Origin: Acidobacteriota bacterium
Lineage (GTDB): Bacteria; Acidobacteriota; UBA6911; RPQK01; JAJDTT01
Reading direction: 5' to 3'
Length of the DNA stretch: 64,000 bases
NCBI GenBank assembly: GCA_965217775.1
Contig: CBDCJH010000001.1
Span: forward strand, 29,816-93,815
The notes under the pieces were generated by a model that did not search any database, had not been told where the DNA came from, and saw only the letters and a list, made by a program, of their open reading frames with translations. Position 1 is the first letter of the stretch. Each line of letters opens with the position of its first letter. Below are positions 21,890-57,646 of this stretch, piece after piece. The position numbers and the translations under genes were made by a program.

Positions 21890-21938
21890 AGCGAAATCAG
21901 GTCGTCGATCCCCAATTGTCCGAATCGAGGTTCTCTAT

Positions 21939-22096
21939 CAGTCCGTGGTGAAAGTCCCGCGAGCACCGAGACCGTTCCTGCGCCCGCCGGACAAGGCGCG
22001 ATTCGGGTGCATACCGGGAGTATGTGCCCGAATCGCAACGCAGTCCGCCGGGATGCAGGGACGGTCGAATGCCGTGGCGACTTTTGCCACGGGCTG
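21939..22096 (-). mobile_element. 158-bp MITE, copy 1 (reverse orientation relative to copy 2)
   Basis: About 93% identical by hand alignment to the reverse complement of 56169-56326. Termini are CAGYCCGTGG...CCACGGRCTG. Flanked by a direct 4-bp duplication CTAT (21935-21938 and 22097-22100). Confidence 0.8.
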
Positions 22097-22202
22097 CTAT
22101 GGCCCCAGGGGTCCACTCTACCGGTTTCGGACCCGCCGGCGGTCAGCTTTGAACTCCCACTCGGTGGGAGAATCCGTGCGGCCGTGATCCTGCACACGAT
22201 CC

Positions 22203-30811: not shown

Positions 30812-30952
30812 AGCGACATCAGTAGCCTGCGCCCTGCTACAGTTTCGAAGCCGGATAATCTGAGATTCCACCGACGCACCGCAGACGGACCGCTTTGGGC
30901 AGCGCCCCTCCCCCACTGCTGCGGGGCAAGAGGGGCGCCGTCCCGGTCTTCA

Positions 30953-32224
30953 TCATGACCGTCCCTGGACGCTCGTGGGCGCGCCCGGTCTCCCCGTAGG
31001 GACTCCGGCTCCGGCTTGCGAGCGTACGGGCCACCCGGAACGCGATTTTGTTGTTCCGGTTCGCGGTGGTGTTCCTGTTGCGGTTCGCGGAGCGCAGGTT
31101 CCTAGGGTTGTTGTTCCAGGAGCCGCCGCGCAAAACGCGCCGGGGGGACGGTCAGGCCTCCGGACGGGGCCGAAACGCACCGCCCGGAAGATCGCTTGGC
31201 GCAAGCGCCAGGTGTTCGCATGCTCGGCATGCGCGATCCAGGCGCGCACGTGCCGAGTCATCTGTTCCAGGTCCACCGTGCCCGCGTGCCAGCGGTCGCG
31301 CAGCCCCCGCAGGCGATTGCGGAACCGGCGCACGTTCGCTTCCGGCAATCGGCGGTAACCGCCCGGAAGTAGGACCAGGCCCAGGAACGGAGTCGGTTGA
31401 GCAGTTTCCAGCACCACCGTCTTGCGTGGGTGCAGCCGCAGGCGCCGGCCCTTGAGATACGTCGCGATTCGATTCCGCCAGTCCTCGAGCCGCCCGCGGT
31501 CGTCGTGAAACAGCGCGAAGTCGTCCACGTACCTGAGATATCCCTTCGCCCGCAGCACTTCCTTGCAGAAGTGGTCGAGACCGTTCAGATAGAGATTGGC
31601 GAAGAACTGGCTCGTCAGGTTGCCGATGGGCAAACCTCGCCGGCGTTCGAACGGGGTGAAGAGATTGTCGCCGGGATAGTAGAGGTTCACCGGTTCCTGC
31701 GGGTTGGACCCCTCGATGAGGCGTTCCGCTAACGCCAGGGTGCGCCGGCAGGCGATCCGCCGCCGCAGGTCCGCCTTGAGGATCTCGTGGTCGATGGCCG
31801 GGAAGTAGCGGTAGACGTCACAACGCAGCACCCAACGGTGCCGGTCGCGAAATCGTTCGTAGCGCGCGATGGCCCGGTGGGTTCCCTTGCCCTTCCGGTT
31901 GGCGTAGCTGTCGTGGATGAAGCCGCGTTCGAAGATGGGTTCCACCACGCGGCAGAAGGCATGGTGGACGACCCGGTCCCGAAAGGGCGCCGCCGAGACC
32001 ATGCGGCGTTTGGGGTCCCGGATCTCGATCACGGTGTAGCGTCCGGGACGGTAGCGCCCGCTCCTCAGTTCCCGCTCCAGGCGCAGAACCTGAGGCTCCA
32101 GATTGGCCAGGAACGACGCCACGCCCGGCTTGGCCCGTTTGCCCTTACAGGCGATCCGGGCCGCCTCCAGCAGGGCCGAAAACGAGGCGATCCGGTCAAA
32201 GAGGTCACGCGCTTTCGCGGGCAT
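30953..32224 (-). CDS. DGR-type reverse transcriptase; the annotated ORF reads through TR1
   Basis: 423-aa ORF with RT motifs, including the DGR-typical LPIGNLTSQFFANLYLNGLD and catalytic RYVDDFALF. After about residue 350 the ORF is just the open frame across TR1. Confidence 0.9.
   Translation of the reverse strand: MPAKARDLFDRIASFSALLEAARIACKGKRAKPGVASFLANLEPQVLRLERELRSGRYRPGRYTVIEIRDPKRRMVSAAPFRDRVVHHAFCRVVEPIFERGFIHDSYANRKGKGTHRAIARYERFRDRHRWVLRCDVYRYFPAIDHEILKADLRRRIACRRTLALAERLIEGSNPQEPVNLYYPGDNLFTPFERRRGLPIGNLTSQFFANLYLNGLDHFCKEVLRAKGYLRYVDDFALFHDDRGRLEDWRNRIATYLKGRRLRLHPRKTVVLETAQPTPFLGLVLLPGGYRRLPEANVRRFRNRLRGLRDRWHAGTVDLEQMTRHVRAWIAHAEHANTWRLRQAIFRAVRFGPVRRPDRPPGAFCAAAPGTTTLGTCAPRTATGTPPRTGTTKSRSGWPVRSQAGAGVPTGRPGAPTSVQGRS
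31032..31143 (-). other. DGR template repeat TR1
   Basis: Adenine/AAC-rich on the minus strand. In the VR frame it reads RGGSWNNNPRNLRSANRNRNTTANRNNKIAFRVAR. Aligns to VR 32696-32823 with mismatches mostly at TR adenines. Confidence 0.85.
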
Positions 32225-32600
32225 GATGCGCTTTCCGCCAGCCGCCGACCAGACGGCCGGTCTCGTCGAGTTGTCGGGCCGCGTGTTCGTAACGGCGCGG
32301 GTCCAGGTAACGCAGCTCGCGGGCCAGACGGCATAGGCACCGGAGCTTCTCCAGACCCAGGTTGGCGGCGGCCAGGGCGGGACCGCGGTGCCGGGTGTAG
32401 GTCGCCTCGATCAGCCGCTCCAGAACGTCCAGAGCCGAGGTCTGGATCCGGTCCCCCAGCAGAAACTTCTGCCGGCGCGGAAAGCGCTCCACCGTCGGGA
32501 TCAACCAGGCGAGGAATCGATAGTGCGACTCCAATGCGGGGCCAGTTTCACGCGAACGGTCGCCACTCCGGACACGCCGCCGCTGGGATTCATTCCTCAA
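32205..32600 (-). CDS. avd: DGR accessory variability determinant (Avd, four-helix-bundle family)
   Basis: 131 aa with a TTG start; a later TTG is also possible. YRFLAWLIPTVERFPRRQKFLLGDRI...LRCLCRLARELRYL...GRLVGGWRK matches the Avd pattern. Overlaps the RT start by 20 nt. Confidence 0.8.
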   Translation of the reverse strand: MRNESQRRRVRSGDRSRETGPALESHYRFLAWLIPTVERFPRRQKFLLGDRIQTSALDVLERLIEATYTRHRGPALAAANLGLEKLRCLCRLARELRYLDPRRYEHAARQLDETGRLVGGWRKAHHARESA

Positions 32601-32645: not shown

Positions 32646-32695
32646 CCCCCCGCAGGAGATAAAGATTTAAGGATTCAAGGGGTAACGGTCCGGGG

Positions 32696-32823
32696 CACCC
32701 GGAACGCGATTCCGAGGTCACCGAATTCACATGAGCCGGTTCGCGGAGGCGGACCCGCTGCGGTACGCGGAGCGCAGGAGCCCGGGGAAATTGCTCCGGG
32801 AGCCGCCGCGCAAAACGCGCCGG
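32696..32823 (-). other. DGR variable repeat (VR) at the 3' end of the target gene
   Basis: Collinear with TR1. By hand count about 18 of 22 substitutions are at TR adenines. VR carries a 16-nt insertion relative to TR1, and a TGA sits where TR1 has AAA. Confidence 0.8.
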
Positions 32824-33944
32824 GAACATTTCCCGCTCTCCCACGCCGAGCCGTTTGTCGGCGCTCCTTGGTAATTCTCGTTCCAACAATCCTGCACCCA
32901 CTCATACACGTTCCCGTGCATGTCGTGCAGGCCCCAGCCGTTGGGACCGAACGATCCCACCGGCGCCGTCTGTGCCTTGTCCCACTTACTCCCGCAGCCA
33001 ACACAGTTGGCCCGGTTGCGACCGATCCCGTTCCCCCAACTGTAGACCGTCTCCGTCCCCGCCCGAGACGCACCCCATCCGGAAGCTCCCCCCGGGGATC
33101 ACCACCATCTCCGGCCGAATCGGGTCCGCCTGGCTGCAGTCGTAAGTGCTGCTGCGGTCATAGGTGACCGACCTCTCGTTTTCTCCTCCCGGATCAAGGG
33201 TCCAAGTCCCGTCCCGTTTGTCCTCCACATACGACCCTTGTTCTACGATCTGCCCGTCATCGTTGCGCCTCACCCAGCGGCCGTGTTTCTTGCCTTCGAC
33301 GTAGGAGATTTCCCATGTGTCGCCGTCCGCGTCTCGGCCGGTCAGTTGGCCGTGTCTTTTGCCGTCTACGTACGGCCTTTTCTCTATGGATCCGTCTGGC
33401 CACCGAGCAGTCCAAAGGCCCTGCATATTGCCTTCCACGAAGGGTCCTTCTGTCTTGTTCCCGGACAGGTCACCGTCTGCTCCGGCAAGAGATATTCGTC
33501 CCACACGTGGCATCCCGGCTGGTTGGCCAGTTCCTTCCAACATTCGGAACCCTTCGCTTTGCCTGAGCAGGTCTGGACGGCATTGAACGTGTCCGCTTCG
33601 GCGGCGTTCAACAATTCCAGGGCTTCGATGTAGTGGTCCCCGTCGCGTCCAGCCATCTCCAAATAGCGCGTCACCATCTGGACCGCCCGGGCGGGACGGC
33701 CCGTCCGCTACGCCACTTGGGCACTTCGAAAATAGAATTCTTCCGGAAGCTTTAGACCCTGTTCCGTCTCTAACGTACTCATCTTGTCGAGCGCGGTTTG
33801 AGCACCAGCGAAGTCTTGCCGCTCGATCGCTTGCCGCGCGGAAAGTAGGTAGCGGTCCGCTTGGATCTCGGGTGGCAGCTGGGCGACCGTCGCGGGAGCG
33901 CCCAAGAATACGAAAACGACAACGCTCCGGATTCTTTTTTCCAT
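32727..33944 (-). pseudogene. DGR target: signal peptide + YwqK/MORN-like repeats + FGE-sulfatase (C-type lectin fold) domain; apparently disrupted
   Basis: The coding signal is split over track ORFs 33708-33944, 33384-33677, 32986-34017 (the latter's 3' half) and 32727-32960. There is an in-frame TAG at 33710-33708, a frame change near 33478, and a frame change plus missing domain core near 33055. Confidence 0.7.
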
Positions 33945-36262: not shown

Positions 36263-36501
36263 GAACCAGAGAGAAGGGGACAGTCACGTTTTCTGCATGC
36301 GATTCGCCAGGACCGAAAAGGGGACAGTCACATTCTCTGCTGTCGCTACTGGGGAGCTCCAGACTCGACTTCCACCGAGCCGCTCTTCGCCTGGAGACCC
36401 AAGAGGAGGATCGAAGCCCTATTGGCCGTTTCGACCTTGACCGAAGAGGAGAAGGAGACAGTCTATTTGTCGCGCGCCGTTGTCCTTGGTACGGTAGCGT
36501 A

Positions 36502-36945
36502 TCAGGTTAGTCCAGACGTAAACGATTGGGTGACCAGGCCCTTGGCCGCGTCTATCCCACCCTCCTTGATCAGGCGAGCAAGAATCTTTCCAAAAGTCTC
36601 GTCGGGTTGCTGGACGCCATCGGGAATGGAGTTGAGTAGCTTCAGCGCCTTCTCGGTCAACATGCAGCCGTTGACCTGTAGTCCTCCACGCTGGAGAGCC
36701 CGAACGTACTCATTCTCTACGAGCCAATCGATCGTCGAAAAGGCGATCCGCATCTGCTTCTGCTTCTCCTCGTCCACATCCTCTGAGTCGTCCTTGCGAG
36801 AGTAAAAGATGTCACCGTATCCTTTGGGGCGAGTGTCACCGCTGATTTCCCACGCCATAAGATCTTGTCTGACCGGAAAGTTCTCATAGAGGCGGCCCAA
36901 AATGATGGCGACGTATTCGTTGAACAGGTCGATGTTCTGCGTCAT
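36502..36945 (-). CDS. hypothetical protein
   Basis: 147-aa ORF with plausible composition (MTQNIDLFNEYVAIILGRLYENFP...). No family recognised. Lies between two motif copies. Confidence 0.5.
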   Translation of the reverse strand: MTQNIDLFNEYVAIILGRLYENFPVRQDLMAWEISGDTRPKGYGDIFYSRKDDSEDVDEEKQKQMRIAFSTIDWLVENEYVRALQRGGLQVNGCMLTEKALKLLNSIPDGVQQPDETFGKILARLIKEGGIDAAKGLVTQSFTSGLT

Positions 36946-37038
36946 GCGTCCTCCCCGTAATGGCTGAGTTGGAGCCGAAACTCCACTTTACGAGGTGTTC
37001 CCACTCGGAGAGAAGGGGACAGTCACGTTTTCTGCATG

Positions 37039-37275
37039 CGCGGCGAGGGCCAAGGCAGTGGCGCCCTCACCGTTCTGGGCGTCGATCCGGGCCCTGCGGT
37101 CCAGCAGCAATTCCGCGACTTCAGCATGACCGTTCGAGGCGGCTTGCATCAGGGGGGTCCGACCATCGTCGTCCCGAACATCCGGGTCCGCCCCCCGGTC
37201 CAGCAGCAGCTTGGCGATCTCCGGGAATCCCTGATACGCCGCGAAGGCGAGAGCCGTCTGGCCTCCCGCGCCTCG
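37039..37275 (-). pseudogene. ankyrin-repeat gene fragment, paralogous to 38767-39003
   Basis: 237 nt, collinear and about 90% identical by hand count to an internal part of the 627-aa ankyrin gene. Encodes GGQTALAFAAYQGFPEIAKLLLDRGADPDVRDDDGRTPLMQAASNGHAEVAELLLDR. Bounded on both sides by motif copies. Confidence 0.85.
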
Positions 37276-37541
37276 GGTTCCCACGGGACGCGAGAAGGGG
37301 ACAGTCTATTTTTCCCGCCCTCGGTTCCAACTGCGCCCACCACTGGACCCTTGCCTGCCAGGTCGATTATCTGGTCACGGACCCTCTACGCGAGAGGGGA
37401 CCAGATTAGGGACCGCTTGGAGAGGTTGGCGAGGGTGCCTTTCTTGACGTGGCTCTTAGGGCGGTAGGACTTGCTCAGGAGGGGCCGGAGAGAAGGGGGC
37501 AGTCACGTTTTCCGCCCCTCGTTCGATGTCAGGAGGATGGC

Positions 37542-37558
37542 GGGGGGGGGGGGGGGGG
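37542..37558 (+). repeat. homopolymeric G17 tract
   Basis: 17 consecutive G read directly from the sequence. Intergenic within the mosaic region. Confidence 0.9.
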
Positions 37559-37568
37559 CGCAGACCGG

Positions 37569-37790
37569 CTACTCCTGCTCCTGGAGCAATCTGGCCAGCG
37601 CAAGAAGGGGACAATCTATTTTTCCCATGATGACGTGTGAAACGTACCGTCTTCCCGCCAATACGCCAGCCCATGCGCCGACGGCCGCAGAGCCTATGGC
37701 GAGAAGGGCCTCATTCTCTTTCTCGTAGAATGCCAACAGCACGGAACCCAGCACAGATAGAACAATGGCCGTGCCCAGCGATATTGCCAC
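37569..37790 (-). CDS. small two-TM hypothetical ORF whose 3' end runs into a motif copy and an ankyrin 3'-end fragment
   Basis: 73 aa with a GTG start. MAISLGTAIVLSVLGSVLLAFY...LLAIGSAAVGAWAGVLAG. The last ~20 codons are encoded by motif copy 37602-37626 plus the LLQEQE-stop fragment. Confidence 0.35.
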   Translation of the reverse strand: MAISLGTAIVLSVLGSVLLAFYEKENEALLAIGSAAVGAWAGVLAGRRYVSHVIMGKIDCPLLALARLLQEQE

Positions 37791-37888
37791 GACTCGATAA
37801 AAGAACTGGTACGATTCATAGGTGGGGGGTGGAACCTATCGCAATTGCAGAATTCCCACTATCGCCCCAATCCTGGGGAGCGGGGGTT

Positions 37889-38110
37889 TCAGCCACCTCT
37901 CAGCCCCATAATGACAAGACGCTCCATCGAACCGTCCTTCTTGCGTCTGTACAATTCTCCACCGTCTTCGACCAACCTGGTCAGATCGTCCATCACCGAC
38001 AATGCGCTACTCACAGTTGATGCTTTGCTTCGCGAGTCCAATTTTTGCGTCAGCCTGTTGGTGATTTCGATATCGCGCTCGGTCAGATTCATGGTGACTT
38101 TTCGTAACAC
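37889..38110 (-). CDS. small ribbon-helix-helix-like hypothetical protein
   Basis: 73 aa. GTG start with AGGAGG 5 nt upstream. VTMNLTERDIEITNRLTQKLDSRSKASTVSSALSV fits a beta-alpha-alpha RHH pattern by eye. TTGACT-18 nt-TATATT lies upstream. Confidence 0.45.
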   Translation of the reverse strand: MLRKVTMNLTERDIEITNRLTQKLDSRSKASTVSSALSVMDDLTRLVEDGGELYRRKKDGSMERLVIMGLRGG

Positions 38111-38381
38111 GTGTGCCTCCTATGTGGTTGCAGATTCCAACCATGCTTCGTTCTGGATGCGCATTGTGCCGCCAAGTCGAGGGACGTCGAGAGGCCAACC
38201 CTGGATCCATCCACCTTTTCAGTCGATGCCAAAGCCCATTCAGCAGCATCTTCAACACTTAACGAGTACTAGAACACATACAGACAATGTATGGCGAATA
38301 TACAGATAAAGTATGGTCATAGTCAAGGTCAAGGGGGGTCGGAACAGGGGACAGTTCCCTTTTCACGAGGTGTGGGTCCGT

Positions 38382-38531
38382 TTTTGTTGTTCCGGTTCCC
38401 GGTGGTGTTCCTGTTGCGGTTCGCGGAGCGCAGGTTCCTGGGGTTGTTGTTCCAGGAGCCGCCGCGAAAAACGCGCTGGGGGGACGGTCAGGCCTCTGGA
38501 CGGGGCCGAAGTGCACCTCCCGGAAGATCGC
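38382..38531 (-). other. orphan second copy of the RT 3' end plus template repeat (TR2)
   Basis: About 150 nt collinear with 31046-31196 at roughly 93-95% identity. Encodes ...IFREVHFGPVQRPDRPP in the RT frame and RGGSWNNNPRNLRSANRNRNTTGNRNNK in the VR frame. There is no RT body upstream. Flanked by motif copies. Confidence 0.8.
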
Positions 38532-38619
38532 CTCGAGGGGACAGTCACGTTTTCCGCAGAGAGAAGGGAACCGCGCAGAGAGAAGGGAACCGGATTCGCG
38601 CGTGCGGCCCAGACGGCTT

Positions 38620-40503
38620 CTACTCCTGTTCCTGGAGTAATCTCGCCGTGACCTTTCGACCTTCGGCCTGAGCCAGCATGAGGGGATTGCTTCCCTGGTG
38701 GTTCCGGATACGCACGTCAGCGCCGCGGCTCAGCAACAGCCGGGCCAGGTCCGTCTGACCTCGGGACGCGGCGAGGGCCAAGGCAGTGGCGCCCTCTCCG
38801 TCCTGGGCATCGATCCGGGCCCCCCGGTCCAGTAGCAGTTCCGCCACTTCAGCATGACCGTTCCAGGCGGCTTGCATCAGTGGGGTCCGGCCGGAATCGT
38901 CTTGGACATCCGGGTCCGCCCCCCGGTCCAGCAGCAGCTTGGCGATCTCCGGAAATCCCTGATACGCCGCGAAGGTGAGGGCCGTCTGGCCCCCCGCGCC
39001 TCGCGCTCCGACACGAGCGCCGCGTTGCAACAGTTTCCGCACCGACTCGATTCGCCCCCTGTAGGCCGCCATGCCCAGAAAAGACTGGCCGCGGGGGGCG
39101 AGCGAATTCACGTCCACACCCGCCGCCAACAGGGCGTCGACGATGGGACCGCGGTCCTGGCTCAGCGCCAGCCCCAGGGCCGTCCAGCCCTCGTTGCTGC
39201 GAGAGTCGAGCCGGGCGCCGCCGTCGATGAGCCGCCGCGCCACTTCGGCGTGACCATGGAGGGCGGCGTAGATGAGCGGCGTCCTCCCCTCCCGGTCCGG
39301 CCGGTCCGGATCGGTCCCCCGGGCCAGCAGGACCTTGACCGTCGCCTCGTTTCCTTCCAACGCGGCGTGCACCAGAAGGGTTCGACCCGCCTCGTCGGGG
39401 GTATCGACCCGTTCCCCGGCCGGGAGCAGCGCTTCGATGACCTTCGTGTGGTCGTACCAGACGGCCAGGTCCAGAGCCGTCTGGCCCCGATTGGACTTGA
39501 TCTGCGGATCCGCGCCCGCCGCCAGAAGCGCCTTGACCGCATCCGCCTTCCCCTGGGAGGCGGCCTGCGTGAGAGGTGTCCGGCCTTGACTGTCGCGGCT
39601 GTCCACCACGGCCCCCGCCCGGATCAGAGCCTCGACGATGGGTGCAAAGCCATTGTAGGCCGCCGCCGCCAGTGGTCCGTTGCCCTCCTTGTCCCGAAAG
39701 CCGGTGGCGGCGCCGTGGGCCAGCAGGAATCGGGCCGCTTCGGTCTTCCCTCCCGACGCCGCATGCATCAGGAGCGGGATGCCGTTGACGTCCACCTCAT
39801 CGACGTCGGCTCCGTAGCGCACCAGGAGAGCAGCCGTTCGTCCGTGGCCCTCGAACAGGGCCAAGGCGAGAGCCGTCCAGTTGTCGCGGCTCCGAGTCCC
39901 GACCTTGGATCCTCCTTCGAGCAGAGCCTCGACCACAGGCAGGTCGCCCTGGGACGATGCCCGCATCAGGACGGTCCAGCCCGTCTTGTCTCGCGCGTCG
40001 GGTCCGGCCCCGGCCGCCAACAGTGTCCGGACCACCGCCACGCTCCCTCCCAGTACTCCCCAGACCAAGGGCGTATGTCCGCTGGCGTCGGTGGAGCGTA
40101 TGTCCGCTCCCACCTCCAGCAAGGCGCCAACGACAGCCACATGTCCGGATCCGGAACCGATCATCAGGGCGGTGGCGCCGTCCCGGGTTCTGGCTTCCAG
40201 TTCCGACCCCCGGGACAGGAGCAGGCGGACGGTCTGTTCATTCCCGCCCATGGCGGCGTACATGAGAGGATTCAATCCGTCCGGATCCCGAACCAACACG
40301 CTGGCGCCCCGGTCCAACAAGGCCGCGACCTGATCGGTGCGGCCCTCCACGGCGGCCCCGATCAGGGCCGCATTGAGCTCCTGATCCTGACCGGCGGCGG
40401 AGACGTTGGACGACAGAAGACCCAGAACCAACCACCGGGCGAGGAAGTCCCGGCCCCGCGGTTTCGGCCTTGGCCGCACTTGATATCCGGTGGCTCGGAA
40501 CAT
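38620..40503 (-). CDS. large secreted ankyrin-repeat protein
   Basis: 627 aa with an N-terminal signal/anchor (WLVLGLLSSNVSAAG), followed by about 18 ANK repeats. Confidence 0.9.
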   Translation of the reverse strand: MFRATGYQVRPRPKPRGRDFLARWLVLGLLSSNVSAAGQDQELNAALIGAAVEGRTDQVAALLDRGASVLVRDPDGLNPLMYAAMGGNEQTVRLLLSRGSELEARTRDGATALMIGSGSGHVAVVGALLEVGADIRSTDASGHTPLVWGVLGGSVAVVRTLLAAGAGPDARDKTGWTVLMRASSQGDLPVVEALLEGGSKVGTRSRDNWTALALALFEGHGRTAALLVRYGADVDEVDVNGIPLLMHAASGGKTEAARFLLAHGAATGFRDKEGNGPLAAAAYNGFAPIVEALIRAGAVVDSRDSQGRTPLTQAASQGKADAVKALLAAGADPQIKSNRGQTALDLAVWYDHTKVIEALLPAGERVDTPDEAGRTLLVHAALEGNEATVKVLLARGTDPDRPDREGRTPLIYAALHGHAEVARRLIDGGARLDSRSNEGWTALGLALSQDRGPIVDALLAAGVDVNSLAPRGQSFLGMAAYRGRIESVRKLLQRGARVGARGAGGQTALTFAAYQGFPEIAKLLLDRGADPDVQDDSGRTPLMQAAWNGHAEVAELLLDRGARIDAQDGEGATALALAASRGQTDLARLLLSRGADVRIRNHQGSNPLMLAQAEGRKVTARLLQEQE

Positions 40504-56140: not shown

Positions 56141-57646
56141 GTGACGATGAAGAGATCGACACCCTTAACAGCCCGTGGTGAAAGTCGCCACGGCATTCGA
56201 CCGTCCCTGCATCCCGGCGAACTGCGTTGCGATCGGCTCACATACTCCCGGTATGCTCCCTCATCGCGCCTTGTCCGGCGGGCGCAGGAACGGTCTCGGT
56301 GCTCGCGGGACTCTCACCACGGACTGTTAATCCTGACGGCCGTATTGCTGGGAGTCGGGCTCCTCCTGCCGGGGGTCCCCGGAGTCTACGGAGCGCAGCC
56401 GGATGCGGAGCAAGCCTTCCACATCCCGGACCCGCTGCTGGGTGAGTACATTCGCACCGCCCTCGACTCCAACCCCTCCATCCTGACCGAGCTGGCCCGT
56501 TACCGTGCGGCTCTCCAGAAGGTGCCCCAGCAGACCGCTCTTCCCGATCCCATGGTGAGCTTCGGCCGCTACCTTCGCAGCGTAGAAACCCGGGAAGGTC
56601 CTCAACTGAGCACGCTCACACTCAGCCAGCGGTTCCCCTGGTTCGGCAAGCTGGACCTGAAGGGCAAGATCGCCTTCAAACGGGCGGCGGCCCGATACCG
56701 TCTCTACCGCGCCCGGGAAAGGGAAGTCGCCGCCGACGTGAAGCGAAACTTCTACGACGTGGCCTTTCTGGACCGGGCCCTGGAAGTCGTACAGGAGGAG
56801 AAATCTCTGCTGGCTCACTACGAGAATCTGGCTCAGGCTCGTTACGCTTCGGGCAAGGGACACCAGCAGGAGGTGATCCGGATCCAGGCCGAGATCAGCC
56901 GGACCATGAGCCGGCTGGAACTGCTGGGACAACAACGCCAATCGGCGGCGGCACGACTGAACAGCCTGCTGGACCAGCCTCCGGAAAAGCCCGTGCCTCG
57001 ACTCCTGCTTCCCGCTGCGGCGAAGGTCAGTATCAACTTGGATGAATTGTACGAGCTGGGGAAGCTTCACCGGCAGGAACTCAAGGGGACCATGGCGCGG
57101 ATCGAAGCTTCGGAGCAGGGCGTGGAGCTGGCCAAGAAGAGTTTCTGGCCGGATTTCACACTGACTGCGGGGACCGTCAACGTGGGCGGTCTTCCGCCGC
57201 AGGACCTGTTGCCGGCGACGCGTCCCGGCGGCGGAAAGAATGCCTACAACCTCTCGGTGGGCATCAACATTCCCCTCCAAAGGCACAAATACCGCGCGGA
57301 GGTGATGGAGGCCGCGGAAAACCTGATCGCCGAACGCAGCACGTATCGAGATCTGCGAAACCGGATTCAACTCTCCATCCGGGACCTGGCGGTTCGCATC
57401 CAGACCCTGTGGAGACAGATGGACCTGTTTGAACGGGTCCTGATTCCCCAGACCCGGGAGGCGCTCCGTTCCGCCGAGTCCGGATACCGGAACGGGCAGT
57501 TGGGGGCCCTGGAGCTCTTGGACAGCGAACGGTCCCTGTTGGAAACGCGCGTGCTCCAGGCTCGCCACCGGGCCGACTATTTGCAGGCCCTGGCGGAAAT
57601 GGAGCGGGCCGTCGGAGCACGTTACCCCGGATCGGGAGAAGACTGA
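56141..57646 (+). CDS. TolC-family outer-membrane efflux protein (CusC/CzcC-like) carrying an in-frame MITE insertion near the 5' end
   Basis: 501-aa track ORF. From about residue 65 it is a typical OMF (paired coiled repeats). Residues ~10-63 are encoded by MITE copy 2. The functional start is uncertain. Confidence 0.8.
   Translation: MTMKRSTPLTARGESRHGIRPSLHPGELRCDRLTYSRYAPSSRLVRRAQERSRCSRDSHHGLLILTAVLLGVGLLLPGVPGVYGAQPDAEQAFHIPDPLLGEYIRTALDSNPSILTELARYRAALQKVPQQTALPDPMVSFGRYLRSVETREGPQLSTLTLSQRFPWFGKLDLKGKIAFKRAAARYRLYRAREREVAADVKRNFYDVAFLDRALEVVQEEKSLLAHYENLAQARYASGKGHQQEVIRIQAEISRTMSRLELLGQQRQSAAARLNSLLDQPPEKPVPRLLLPAAAKVSINLDELYELGKLHRQELKGTMARIEASEQGVELAKKSFWPDFTLTAGTVNVGGLPPQDLLPATRPGGGKNAYNLSVGINIPLQRHKYRAEVMEAAENLIAERSTYRDLRNRIQLSIRDLAVRIQTLWRQMDLFERVLIPQTREALRSAESGYRNGQLGALELLDSERSLLETRVLQARHRADYLQALAEMERAVGARYPGSGED
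56169..56326 (+). mobile_element. 158-bp MITE, copy 2
   Basis: Terminal inverted repeats CAGCCCGTGGTGAAAGTC ... GACTCTCACCACGGACTG. Flanked by direct TTAA repeats (56165-56168 and 56327-56330). About 93% identical to copy 1. Confidence 0.8.

Follow-up and report, generated by a model that had tools for sequence, protein, structure and literature searches.

A truncated copy of a DGR template repeat in an Acidobacteriota genome is probably a non-functional relic bounded by a short dispersed repeat

Results

The resident DGR and its target

We analyzed a 64-kb stretch of DNA from an Acidobacteriota bacterium, referred to here as the window; positions are counted from its first base. The window contains a DGR (30.9-34.0 kb) whose parts all lie on the minus strand in the order avd-RT-TR, the arrangement designated 'B2' by Wu et al. 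2018 (PMC5758913). The features are as follows.

30900 to 31021, minus strand: conserved structured RNA 3' of TR1 (RNAalifold, 26 related loci)
30953 to 32224, minus strand: DGR reverse transcriptase (RT), 423 aa, intact (RVT_1, 1e-17)
31024 to 31144, minus strand: TR1, the resident template repeat, inside the RT 3' end (TR/VR alignment)
31145 to 31195, minus strand: RT coding stretch just upstream of TR1, without target-gene homology, duplicated in TR2
32205 to 32600, minus strand: bAvd accessory gene, intact (PF22296, 1e-18)
32688 to 32824, minus strand: variable repeat (VR), disrupted; a 16-nt insertion at 32720-32735 shifts the frame to a stop codon (TR1/VR alignment)
32688 to 33944, minus strand: adjacent DGR target, a pseudogene with an FGE-sulfatase / C-type-lectin fold (domain search and comparison with relatives)

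The resident element combines a DGR-clade RT with the accessory protein Avd, and the IGNLTSQ and YVDD motifs are readable in the RT translation. Homologues of the RT number in the thousands, with 90-92% identity, equal length and full coverage among them, and the closest is P0008. The RT reading frame continues through the TR and the first hairpin of the downstream RNA to a conserved stop codon at 30953-30955. Because many of the best homologues are called at 423-424 aa with full coverage, reading through the TR is a family trait. Exact-protein look-ups with the RT, Avd, 147-aa and fn3 proteins of the window returned no identical record. A homologue of the fn3 neighbor (P0002) is found on an unrelated IS-rich contig.

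TR1 and the VR differ mostly by adenine-to-N changes, with 19 of these compared to 3 internal non-adenine differences. Like the B2-type DGRs (PMC5758913), the resident element has a bAvd gene, an RVT_1 RT, a TR at the 3' end of the RT gene (here inside it), a VR with mostly adenine-specific differences at the 3' end of an FGE-sulfatase-domain gene, and an Avd-binding-type stem-loop after the TR. It differs from them in having only a pseudogene as its adjacent target and an additional, truncated TR 7.3 kb away. The lesions of the target pseudogene are an in-frame stop, an internal deletion of about 88 aa with a frameshift near 33064-33071, and the insertion in the VR, so that no intact VR-bearing target gene adjoins the element. 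In addition, Arg has replaced the Trp of the GGSW stretch, a residue that both TR1 and the relatives' target genes retain. Full-length target genes are called in the relatives L029, L115 and L116.

In L110/L111 (8475-11356), an RT with 85% identity is found in an IS-rich region with MobC and relaxase genes, and the FGE-sulfatase target is likewise split into two reading frames. This DGR lineage is thus also present in mobile contexts, and split targets recur, via either real decay or long-read indel errors.

A structured RNA downstream of TR1

The region 3' of TR1 was aligned across 26 DGR loci, comprising close relatives reached via RT homologues and JGI metagenome loci with 59-74% RT identity. 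RNAalifold predicted 27 pairs, and compensatory double changes were present in at least one sequence at 25 of these. A 3-bp outer helix (31021-31019 pairing with 30975-30973) encloses hairpin 1 (30985-31008), which has a 10-bp stem and a UNCG-type tetraloop. Beyond it are a box, GCGTCCAGGGACGGTCATGATGA (30950-30972), that holds the RT stop codon, and a GC-rich hairpin 2 (30900-30940). The box between the two hairpins is near-invariant among the aligned loci (GCGTCCAGGGNCGGTCATGATGA, also written GGTCATGATGA). No Rfam family was found for this RNA.

Avd-binding stem-loops have been reported just downstream of the TR in 207 of 278 Avd-containing DGRs, with stems of approximately 9 bp and tetraloops, and UNCG loops are frequent in those of Pseudomonadota (Handa et al., bioRxiv 10.1101/2023.10.23.563531). 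In the Bordetella phage DGR, the noncoding segment 3' of the TR makes bRT-Avd processive on DGR RNA (PMC6182149); it is bound by Avd and acts as the cis primer of cDNA synthesis (PMC6182149; bioRxiv 10.1101/2023.10.23.563531). The conserved RNA 3' of TR1 fits the published description of an Avd-binding stem-loop. It is for the Bordetella phage DGR alone that a requirement for downstream RNA has been demonstrated, and here we infer it from conservation.

TR2 resembles the template repeat and not the variable repeat

A second TR-type sequence is found 7.3 kb from the resident DGR.

38379 to 38531, minus strand: TR2, a truncated copy of the RT 3' end and template repeat (pairwise repeat search and BLAST against 31043-31195)

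A repeat search of the window aligned 31043-31195 with 38379-38531 without gaps (144 of 153 bases the same, 9 mismatches, 94%), and BLAST of the same pair gave 150 nt at 94.7% identity (E = 4e-64). When the TR region was compared by BLAST to the whole window, it matched in three places only: TR1, TR2 and a single VR at approximately 32690-32824. On its sense strand, TR2 begins 51 nt upstream of the point where TR/VR homology begins. These 51 nt, which match the RT gene and not the target gene, are RT 3' coding sequence and are followed by the first ~100 of the 121 TR nt. TR2 retains each of the 31 adenines that TR1 has in the shared stretch, and the nine differences all fall at other TR1 bases; TR2-type bases at non-adenine positions are found, for example, in ...TTTTTCGCGG... 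and ...CCACCGGGAAC.... Given the complete retention of adenines and the presence of the RT-gene flank, TR2 is TR-like and not VR-like. It has no adenine-specific differences and lies outside any FGE-sulfatase reading frame. We considered that TR2 could be the VR remnant of a lost target, since in L029 the ankyrin gene and the 147-aa gene are separated by target genes; this was ruled out by the RT-gene flank. Based on these comparisons, TR2 was copied from the RT/TR junction at the DNA level and is not a VR or an adenine-mutagenized cDNA product.

The homology of TR2 to TR1 and to the TRs of relatives ends at ...AACGG, approximately 20 nt short of the TR end. TR2 therefore has no complete TR 3' end (the IMH*-equivalent region, for homing), and the part encoding IAFRVAR is not present. 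On the sense 3' side, TR2 is followed by 13 unrelated nt and then by a copy of the motif described below; the structured downstream RNA, with its Avd-binding stem-loop and priming site, is wholly absent. By analogy with the Bordetella phage DGR, an RNA made from TR2 would be unable to start cDNA synthesis, as it would have neither the Avd-binding stem-loop nor the priming region, and TR2 itself would be unable to home with its TR 3' end missing. No promoter-like site was found upstream of TR2 on the minus strand, and no terminator-like site was found between the ankyrin stop codon (38620) and TR2. The latter observation makes it plausible that read-through RNA from the ankyrin gene could extend across TR2.

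These results agree with much of a preliminary description of this segment, which placed it correctly to within 1-3 nt as collinear with the TR1 region, recognized it as a TR copy rather than a VR, noted that the RT body and the IAFRVAR part of the TR are missing, and observed that both breakpoints coincide with motif copies. That description regarded the duplicated region as the end of the RT followed by TR1. An RT 3' piece is indeed carried by TR2, but the RT frame does not end there, as it reads through the TR to the stop codon at 30953-30955.

A TR2-type template of the VR is not supported

It was suggested previously that a TR2-like sequence may have been the last template of the VR, based on a match of the VR to TR2 at one non-adenine position in a 'CCC' site. 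A three-way alignment of TR1, TR2 and VR bears out the match, with T in TR1 and C in both TR2 and VR, and this is the only non-adenine site at which the VR sides with TR2. We polarized the TR1/TR2 differences with the TRs of L029, L112, L110 and L116 and the orthologous TR2 of L115. Among the six TR/TR2 sequences compared, the T is private to TR1, so the match reflects a TR1-private change and the VR keeps the older base. At another codon, GCG is found in TR1 and the VR, compared to GGG in both TR2 copies and L112; the VR therefore cannot be derived from a TR2-type template by adenine mutagenesis. Four changes are private to the window's TR2, three of them to A and one to T. Only the change to T, in TTTTTC, falls inside the VR-homologous stretch, and the VR does not have it. 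Counted over non-adenine positions, TR1 has three mismatches to the VR and TR2 has four, which include GGG versus GCG and T versus G. The suggested TR2-like template for the VR is thus not supported. Within the 64-kb window, no VR was found that differs from TR2 at adenines only, the sole VR having the four non-adenine mismatches.

The 3' end ATCGCGTTCCGGGTG is common to the VR (32688-32707) and TR1 (31024-31043). At this position the TRs of the relatives L029, L112 and L116 read AACGGnTTCCGCGT, and TR2 has AACGG. This pattern suggests VR-to-TR conversion at the TR1 3' end, which may have given the TR a VR-type homing end.

TR2 in related genomes

Pairwise identity over 154 shared columns is 91-94% among TR1, TR2 and the TRs of L029 and L112, and TR1 and TR2 each have approximately 4-5 private substitutions. 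Because TR1 and TR2 share derived bases, the duplication that separated them was intragenomic but is old.

Two further relatives, L115 and L116, whose samples are listed in ENA as ERZ25072670 and ERZ25067264, were reached through the 147-aa neighbor gene. L115 is a metagenome contig with 92.9% identity to the window across the ankyrin gene and the genes flanking it. TR2 occupies the same site in this contig (8946-9097), as part of a 922-nt block that matches the window at 96.6%. One nt has been deleted from the L115 copy, and an AAC has become AGC. The TR2 copies of the two sequences are 95.4% identical, compared to 96.2% for the rest of the block. Since TR2 diverges about as much as its noncoding surroundings and has an indel in L115, it shows no sign of selection. 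L116, in which the ankyrin gene is 96% identical, lacks exactly the unit composed of the motif, TCGAG, TR2 and 13 nt, and its junction ...CTTCTCTCTGCGGAAAAAAAAGGGAACTGTCCCC... falls within the GAAAA arms of the motif copies found on either side of TR2 in the window. Its absence from L116 indicates that TR2 is dispensable. The retained adenines and the persistence of TR2 in two lineages are expected of a neutral relic that is approximately 5% diverged, yet would also be expected of a template in use.

At CC[G/A]GAGG, the A is common to TR1 and TR2 of the window and is not found in the TR2 of L115. This hints at occasional gene conversion between TR1 and TR2, and at a possible minor role for TR2 as a recombination partner.

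Another Acidobacteriota relative, L011, on contig CATOST010000018.1, is 93.5% identical to the window over 7.7 kb. In this genome RT, avd and the VR are gone, and the sequence from mid-TR to mid-target has been swapped for approximately 100 nt containing the motif. At L011 1-420, the 3' half of the TR continues through the motif and three copies of a 9-nt repeat (ACCGGATGC) into mid-target sequence.

A short repeat in a 2.3-kb intergenic patchwork

TR2 is located in a region in which copies of a short motif separate small modules and gene scraps.

36268 to 37626, plus strand: remaining motif cluster, with cores at 36276, 36320, 36454, 37015, 37297, 37495 and 37607 (repeat search)
36448 to 37011, minus strand: 147-aa gene module, motif-bounded, 96-98% identical in L029, L115 and L116
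37039 to 37284, minus strand: ankyrin-repeat gene scrap, motif-bounded, 90% identical to 38767-39012 of the intact gene
37569 to 37596, minus strand: duplicate of the ankyrin 3' end with its stop codon, followed by a flank orthologous to the post-ankyrin sequence of L029
38347 to 38364, plus strand: degenerate motif copy GGGGACAGTTCCCTTTTC, 3 mismatches, 13-14 nt past the sense 3' breakpoint of TR2
38532 to 38562, plus strand: exact motif copy (core 38537-38554, GGGGACAGTCACGTTTTC) that abuts the sense 5' breakpoint of TR2
38556 to 38600, plus strand: half-motif GCAGAGAGAAGGGAACCG in two tandem copies, which separate the motif from the ankyrin stop codon (read directly)

Nine copies of GGGGACAGTC-NNN-TTYTC are present in 36268-38600, all on the same strand. 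The 18-mer GGGGACAGTCACGTTTTC, with up to 3 mismatches allowed, has 7 same-strand copies in 36276-38554, compared to 0.04 expected. The sense 5' breakpoint of TR2 is 5 nt from the exact core, and the degenerate copy on the other side is conserved in L115 and L116. Within the cluster, start-to-start spacings are 44, 695, 282, 198, 852 and 190 nt, an irregularity that rules out a CRISPR array.

The patchwork also holds two 73-aa reading frames. In the ankyrin scrap (246 nt), 16 of the 25 differences are at third codon positions and 6 of the 25 are at A, with an A content of 16%. The absence of adenine bias in this scrap rules out that the scraps are adenine-mutagenized retro-copies. L029, L115 and L116 contain the same modules at 96-98% identity in other orders and combinations; the DNA flanking the 147-aa module is 92-96% identical in these genomes, and the neighbors differ between them. 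When homology blocks were defined against L115, L116 and L029, 13 of 22 block ends were within 15 nt of a motif core, compared to an expected 13.7% (P about 9e-7).

The 147-aa module or its homologue is found at L029 4612-5183, L115 9934-10498, L118 2366-2889 and L117 10001-10438, with an 88%-identical occurrence in an unrelated genomic context. In a P2-like phage tail cluster, a protein 89% identical to its product is encoded by a gene flanked by gpU and tail-X. Within the patchwork, a homopolymer of 19 G (37540-37558) may be a hotspot for slippage or long-read assembly error.

The motif was observed in several other Acidobacteriota genome assemblies, and extended flanks are common to the Acidobacteriota matches only. 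Complete Acidobacteriota chromosomes with the motif are OY764083, OZ253580, OZ246889, OZ241897 and OZ220706. The motif-bearing loci are L002, L011-L013, L015, L019-L027, L029, L115 and L116. Stuttered half-sites often flank the copies in other genomes, and synteny stops at the motif in six orthologous loci. In L013, the motif flanks two genes whose translations look like a RelB/YafQ pair. A search of the genome collection with the 18-mer returned 27 matches, of which approximately 17 could be due to chance in 596 billion bases searched on both strands. Two matches in viral contigs, apparently one sequence, do not have the GAGAA flank and were judged unrelated to the Acidobacteriota family.

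Several known classes of element were considered for the motif and ruled out. A REP/BIME palindrome is inconsistent with its lack of folding, as three copies on both strands folded no better than shuffled sequences (Z 0.7 to 1.4). A promoter or terminator is inconsistent with its orientation relative to genes, which varies between L013 and the window, and with the absence of a hairpin. An accessory site of the DGR is inconsistent with the absence of DGR genes from most motif-bearing loci. No Rfam family was found for the motif region, and a literature search with the motif string returned unrelated primer sequences only. Among the proteins encoded beside the motif, the only families that recur are orthologous neighbors, with no recombinase, and no recombinase gene was found near the motif cluster in the window.

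A separate element of approximately 170 nt is present in the window as two inverted copies 34 kb apart (21936-22106, plus strand; 56165-56329, minus strand). It folds into a single long near-perfect hairpin (-117.6 kcal/mol, z = -10), is also found in L012 and L026 (Candidatus Aminicenantes assembly), and has no Rfam match. This element looks MITE-like.

Discussion

We conclude that TR2 is most probably a fossil that no longer functions and is now part of a repeat-bounded block; we assign this reading a probability of roughly 0.82. The RT-3'/TR junction of the resident DGR would have been duplicated at the DNA level long ago and subsequently trimmed on both sides to 153 nt. The resulting block now lies in the 2.3-kb intergenic patchwork between the ankyrin-repeat gene and the DGR, and it would have formed, and then been gained or lost, by recombination at the short repeat. 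Such recombination could be site-specific, or could be illegitimate or homologous between repeat copies. The duplicate could have originated either from a complete second DGR that was once present or from the copying of the fragment alone. The surrounding context is one of DGR decay, as the adjacent target is a pseudogene and the core of the DGR has been deleted at the motif in L011.

One variant of this explanation, which differs in origin alone, is that a complete second DGR core (avd-RT-TR) was once present beside the ankyrin gene and was eroded by deletions until only TR2 was left. The fragment spans the RT/TR junction in its native register, the deletion in L011 shows that big motif-ended losses can remove DGR parts, and approximately 10% of DGR-bearing complete genomes have several DGRs (PMC5758913). 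However, no other remnant of RT, avd or the downstream RNA was found in 35.4-38.7 kb, L029, L115 and L116 have no second core here, and a second TR-type copy was found in none of approximately 85 related DGR loci. We consider this origin possible but unlikely.

A functional role for TR2 is far harder to reconcile with the data. The preliminary description proposed that an isolated TR could still be transcribed and used in trans by the RT. TR2 would in that case be a working orphan template, transcribed for example by read-through from the ankyrin gene and used by the resident RT-Avd on a VR elsewhere in the genome. The adenine-rich template character is fully kept, no terminator separates TR2 from the ankyrin gene, the RT and Avd frames are intact, and TR2 has been retained in two lineages. 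Other observations speak against such a role: TR2 has neither the TR 3' end nor any of the conserved downstream RNA with its Avd-binding-type stem-loop; the window contains no VR matched to TR2, and its sole VR fits TR1 at least equally well; TR2 is conserved no better than nearby noncoding DNA and has an indel in the L115 copy; and L116 does without it. Taken together, these points make use of TR2 in trans very improbable.

It is similarly improbable that TR2 is a product of retrohoming or another RT-mediated process, in which a cDNA running past the TR 5' end was integrated ectopically. The combination of TR and upstream transcript sequence does resemble an over-long cDNA, and several scraps in these patchworks are 3' parts of local genes (ankyrin and RT, and a 541-aa gene in L029, L115 and L116). 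Against this, TR2 retains all 31 adenines, and the differences in the ankyrin scrap are not biased towards adenine. The part of the TR where cDNA synthesis and integration start is the part that is missing, and the third-codon-position differences in the ankyrin scrap point to descent from another functional gene copy and not to a retro-copy. An assembly artefact, in which a chimeric read join created the segment, is scarcely credible. The region is full of short repeats and has the 19-G run at 37540-37558, and low-coverage long-read metagenome assemblies are the source of the related contigs. However, nine positions distinguish TR2 from TR1, its flanks are unique, and the independent contig L115, from another sample, has the block and the same flanks at the same place (922 nt at 96.6%).

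TR2 resembles gene-fragment relics such as pseudogene scraps in being partial and promoterless, with both ends of the functional unit missing, in its approximately neutral divergence, and in its presence or absence among close relatives. It differs from them in that its parent is a non-protein template element and a specific short repeat bounds the scrap.

The repeat itself can be compared to better-known systems. In Neisseria, NIMEs are bounded by dRS3 repeats, and the BIMEs of enterobacteria are built from REP sequences. As in these, a short, lineage-specific dispersed repeat bounds intergenic modules here and coincides with points of rearrangement or insertion; in contrast to them, the motif is non-palindromic and unfolded, and the modules include scraps of neighboring genes. 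The motif is not known to have sequence similarity to REP or dRS3, and no recombinase or transposase is known to be associated with it. Integron cassette arrays offer another comparison. Same-orientation repeats bound small modules (the 147-aa gene, the RelB/YafQ pair of L013, the TR2 block), and these modules are present, absent or reordered among relatives with junctions inside the repeat. Unlike attC sites, which have an R''/L''-L'/R' hairpin with GTTRRRY boxes and an IntI integrase at the array, the motif has no attC hairpin and, on inspection, no GTTRRRY box; its orientation relative to genes is not fixed, and no integron integrase was found among the neighboring genes examined.

The motif may be a true recombination or insertion site, or it may be a short repeat that seeds illegitimate recombination. 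We speculate that an undescribed process of cassette shuffling in Acidobacteriota could use GARAAGGGGACAGTC-NNN-TTYTC as its site of recombination or insertion, with TR2 as a captured cassette and with the same process dismantling the DGR in L011, although we regard this as doubtful. In such a process the RelB/YafQ pair, the 147-aa gene, the scraps of neighboring genes and the TR2 block may all be modules that are inserted, excised and reordered.

If orphan templates were usable in trans, surveys of DGRs restricted to the vicinity of RT genes would miss part of the diversification network. The case of TR2 argues the opposite, namely that an extra TR can be a relic. Before an orphan TR is called functional, one should ask whether its 3' end and the Avd-binding RNA beyond it are present, how its diagnostic bases are polarized, and whether relatives have or lack it. 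The locus records the decay of a chromosomal DGR, in which the target has been pseudogenized, the core has been deleted in a sister genome and fragments have been left behind. As a DGR finding TR2 is ordinary, and the Acidobacteriota repeat, which is present at nearly all of the breakpoints, is the more interesting lead. If it is a true recombination site, this repeat would represent a new way to shuffle small gene modules in a poorly studied phylum.
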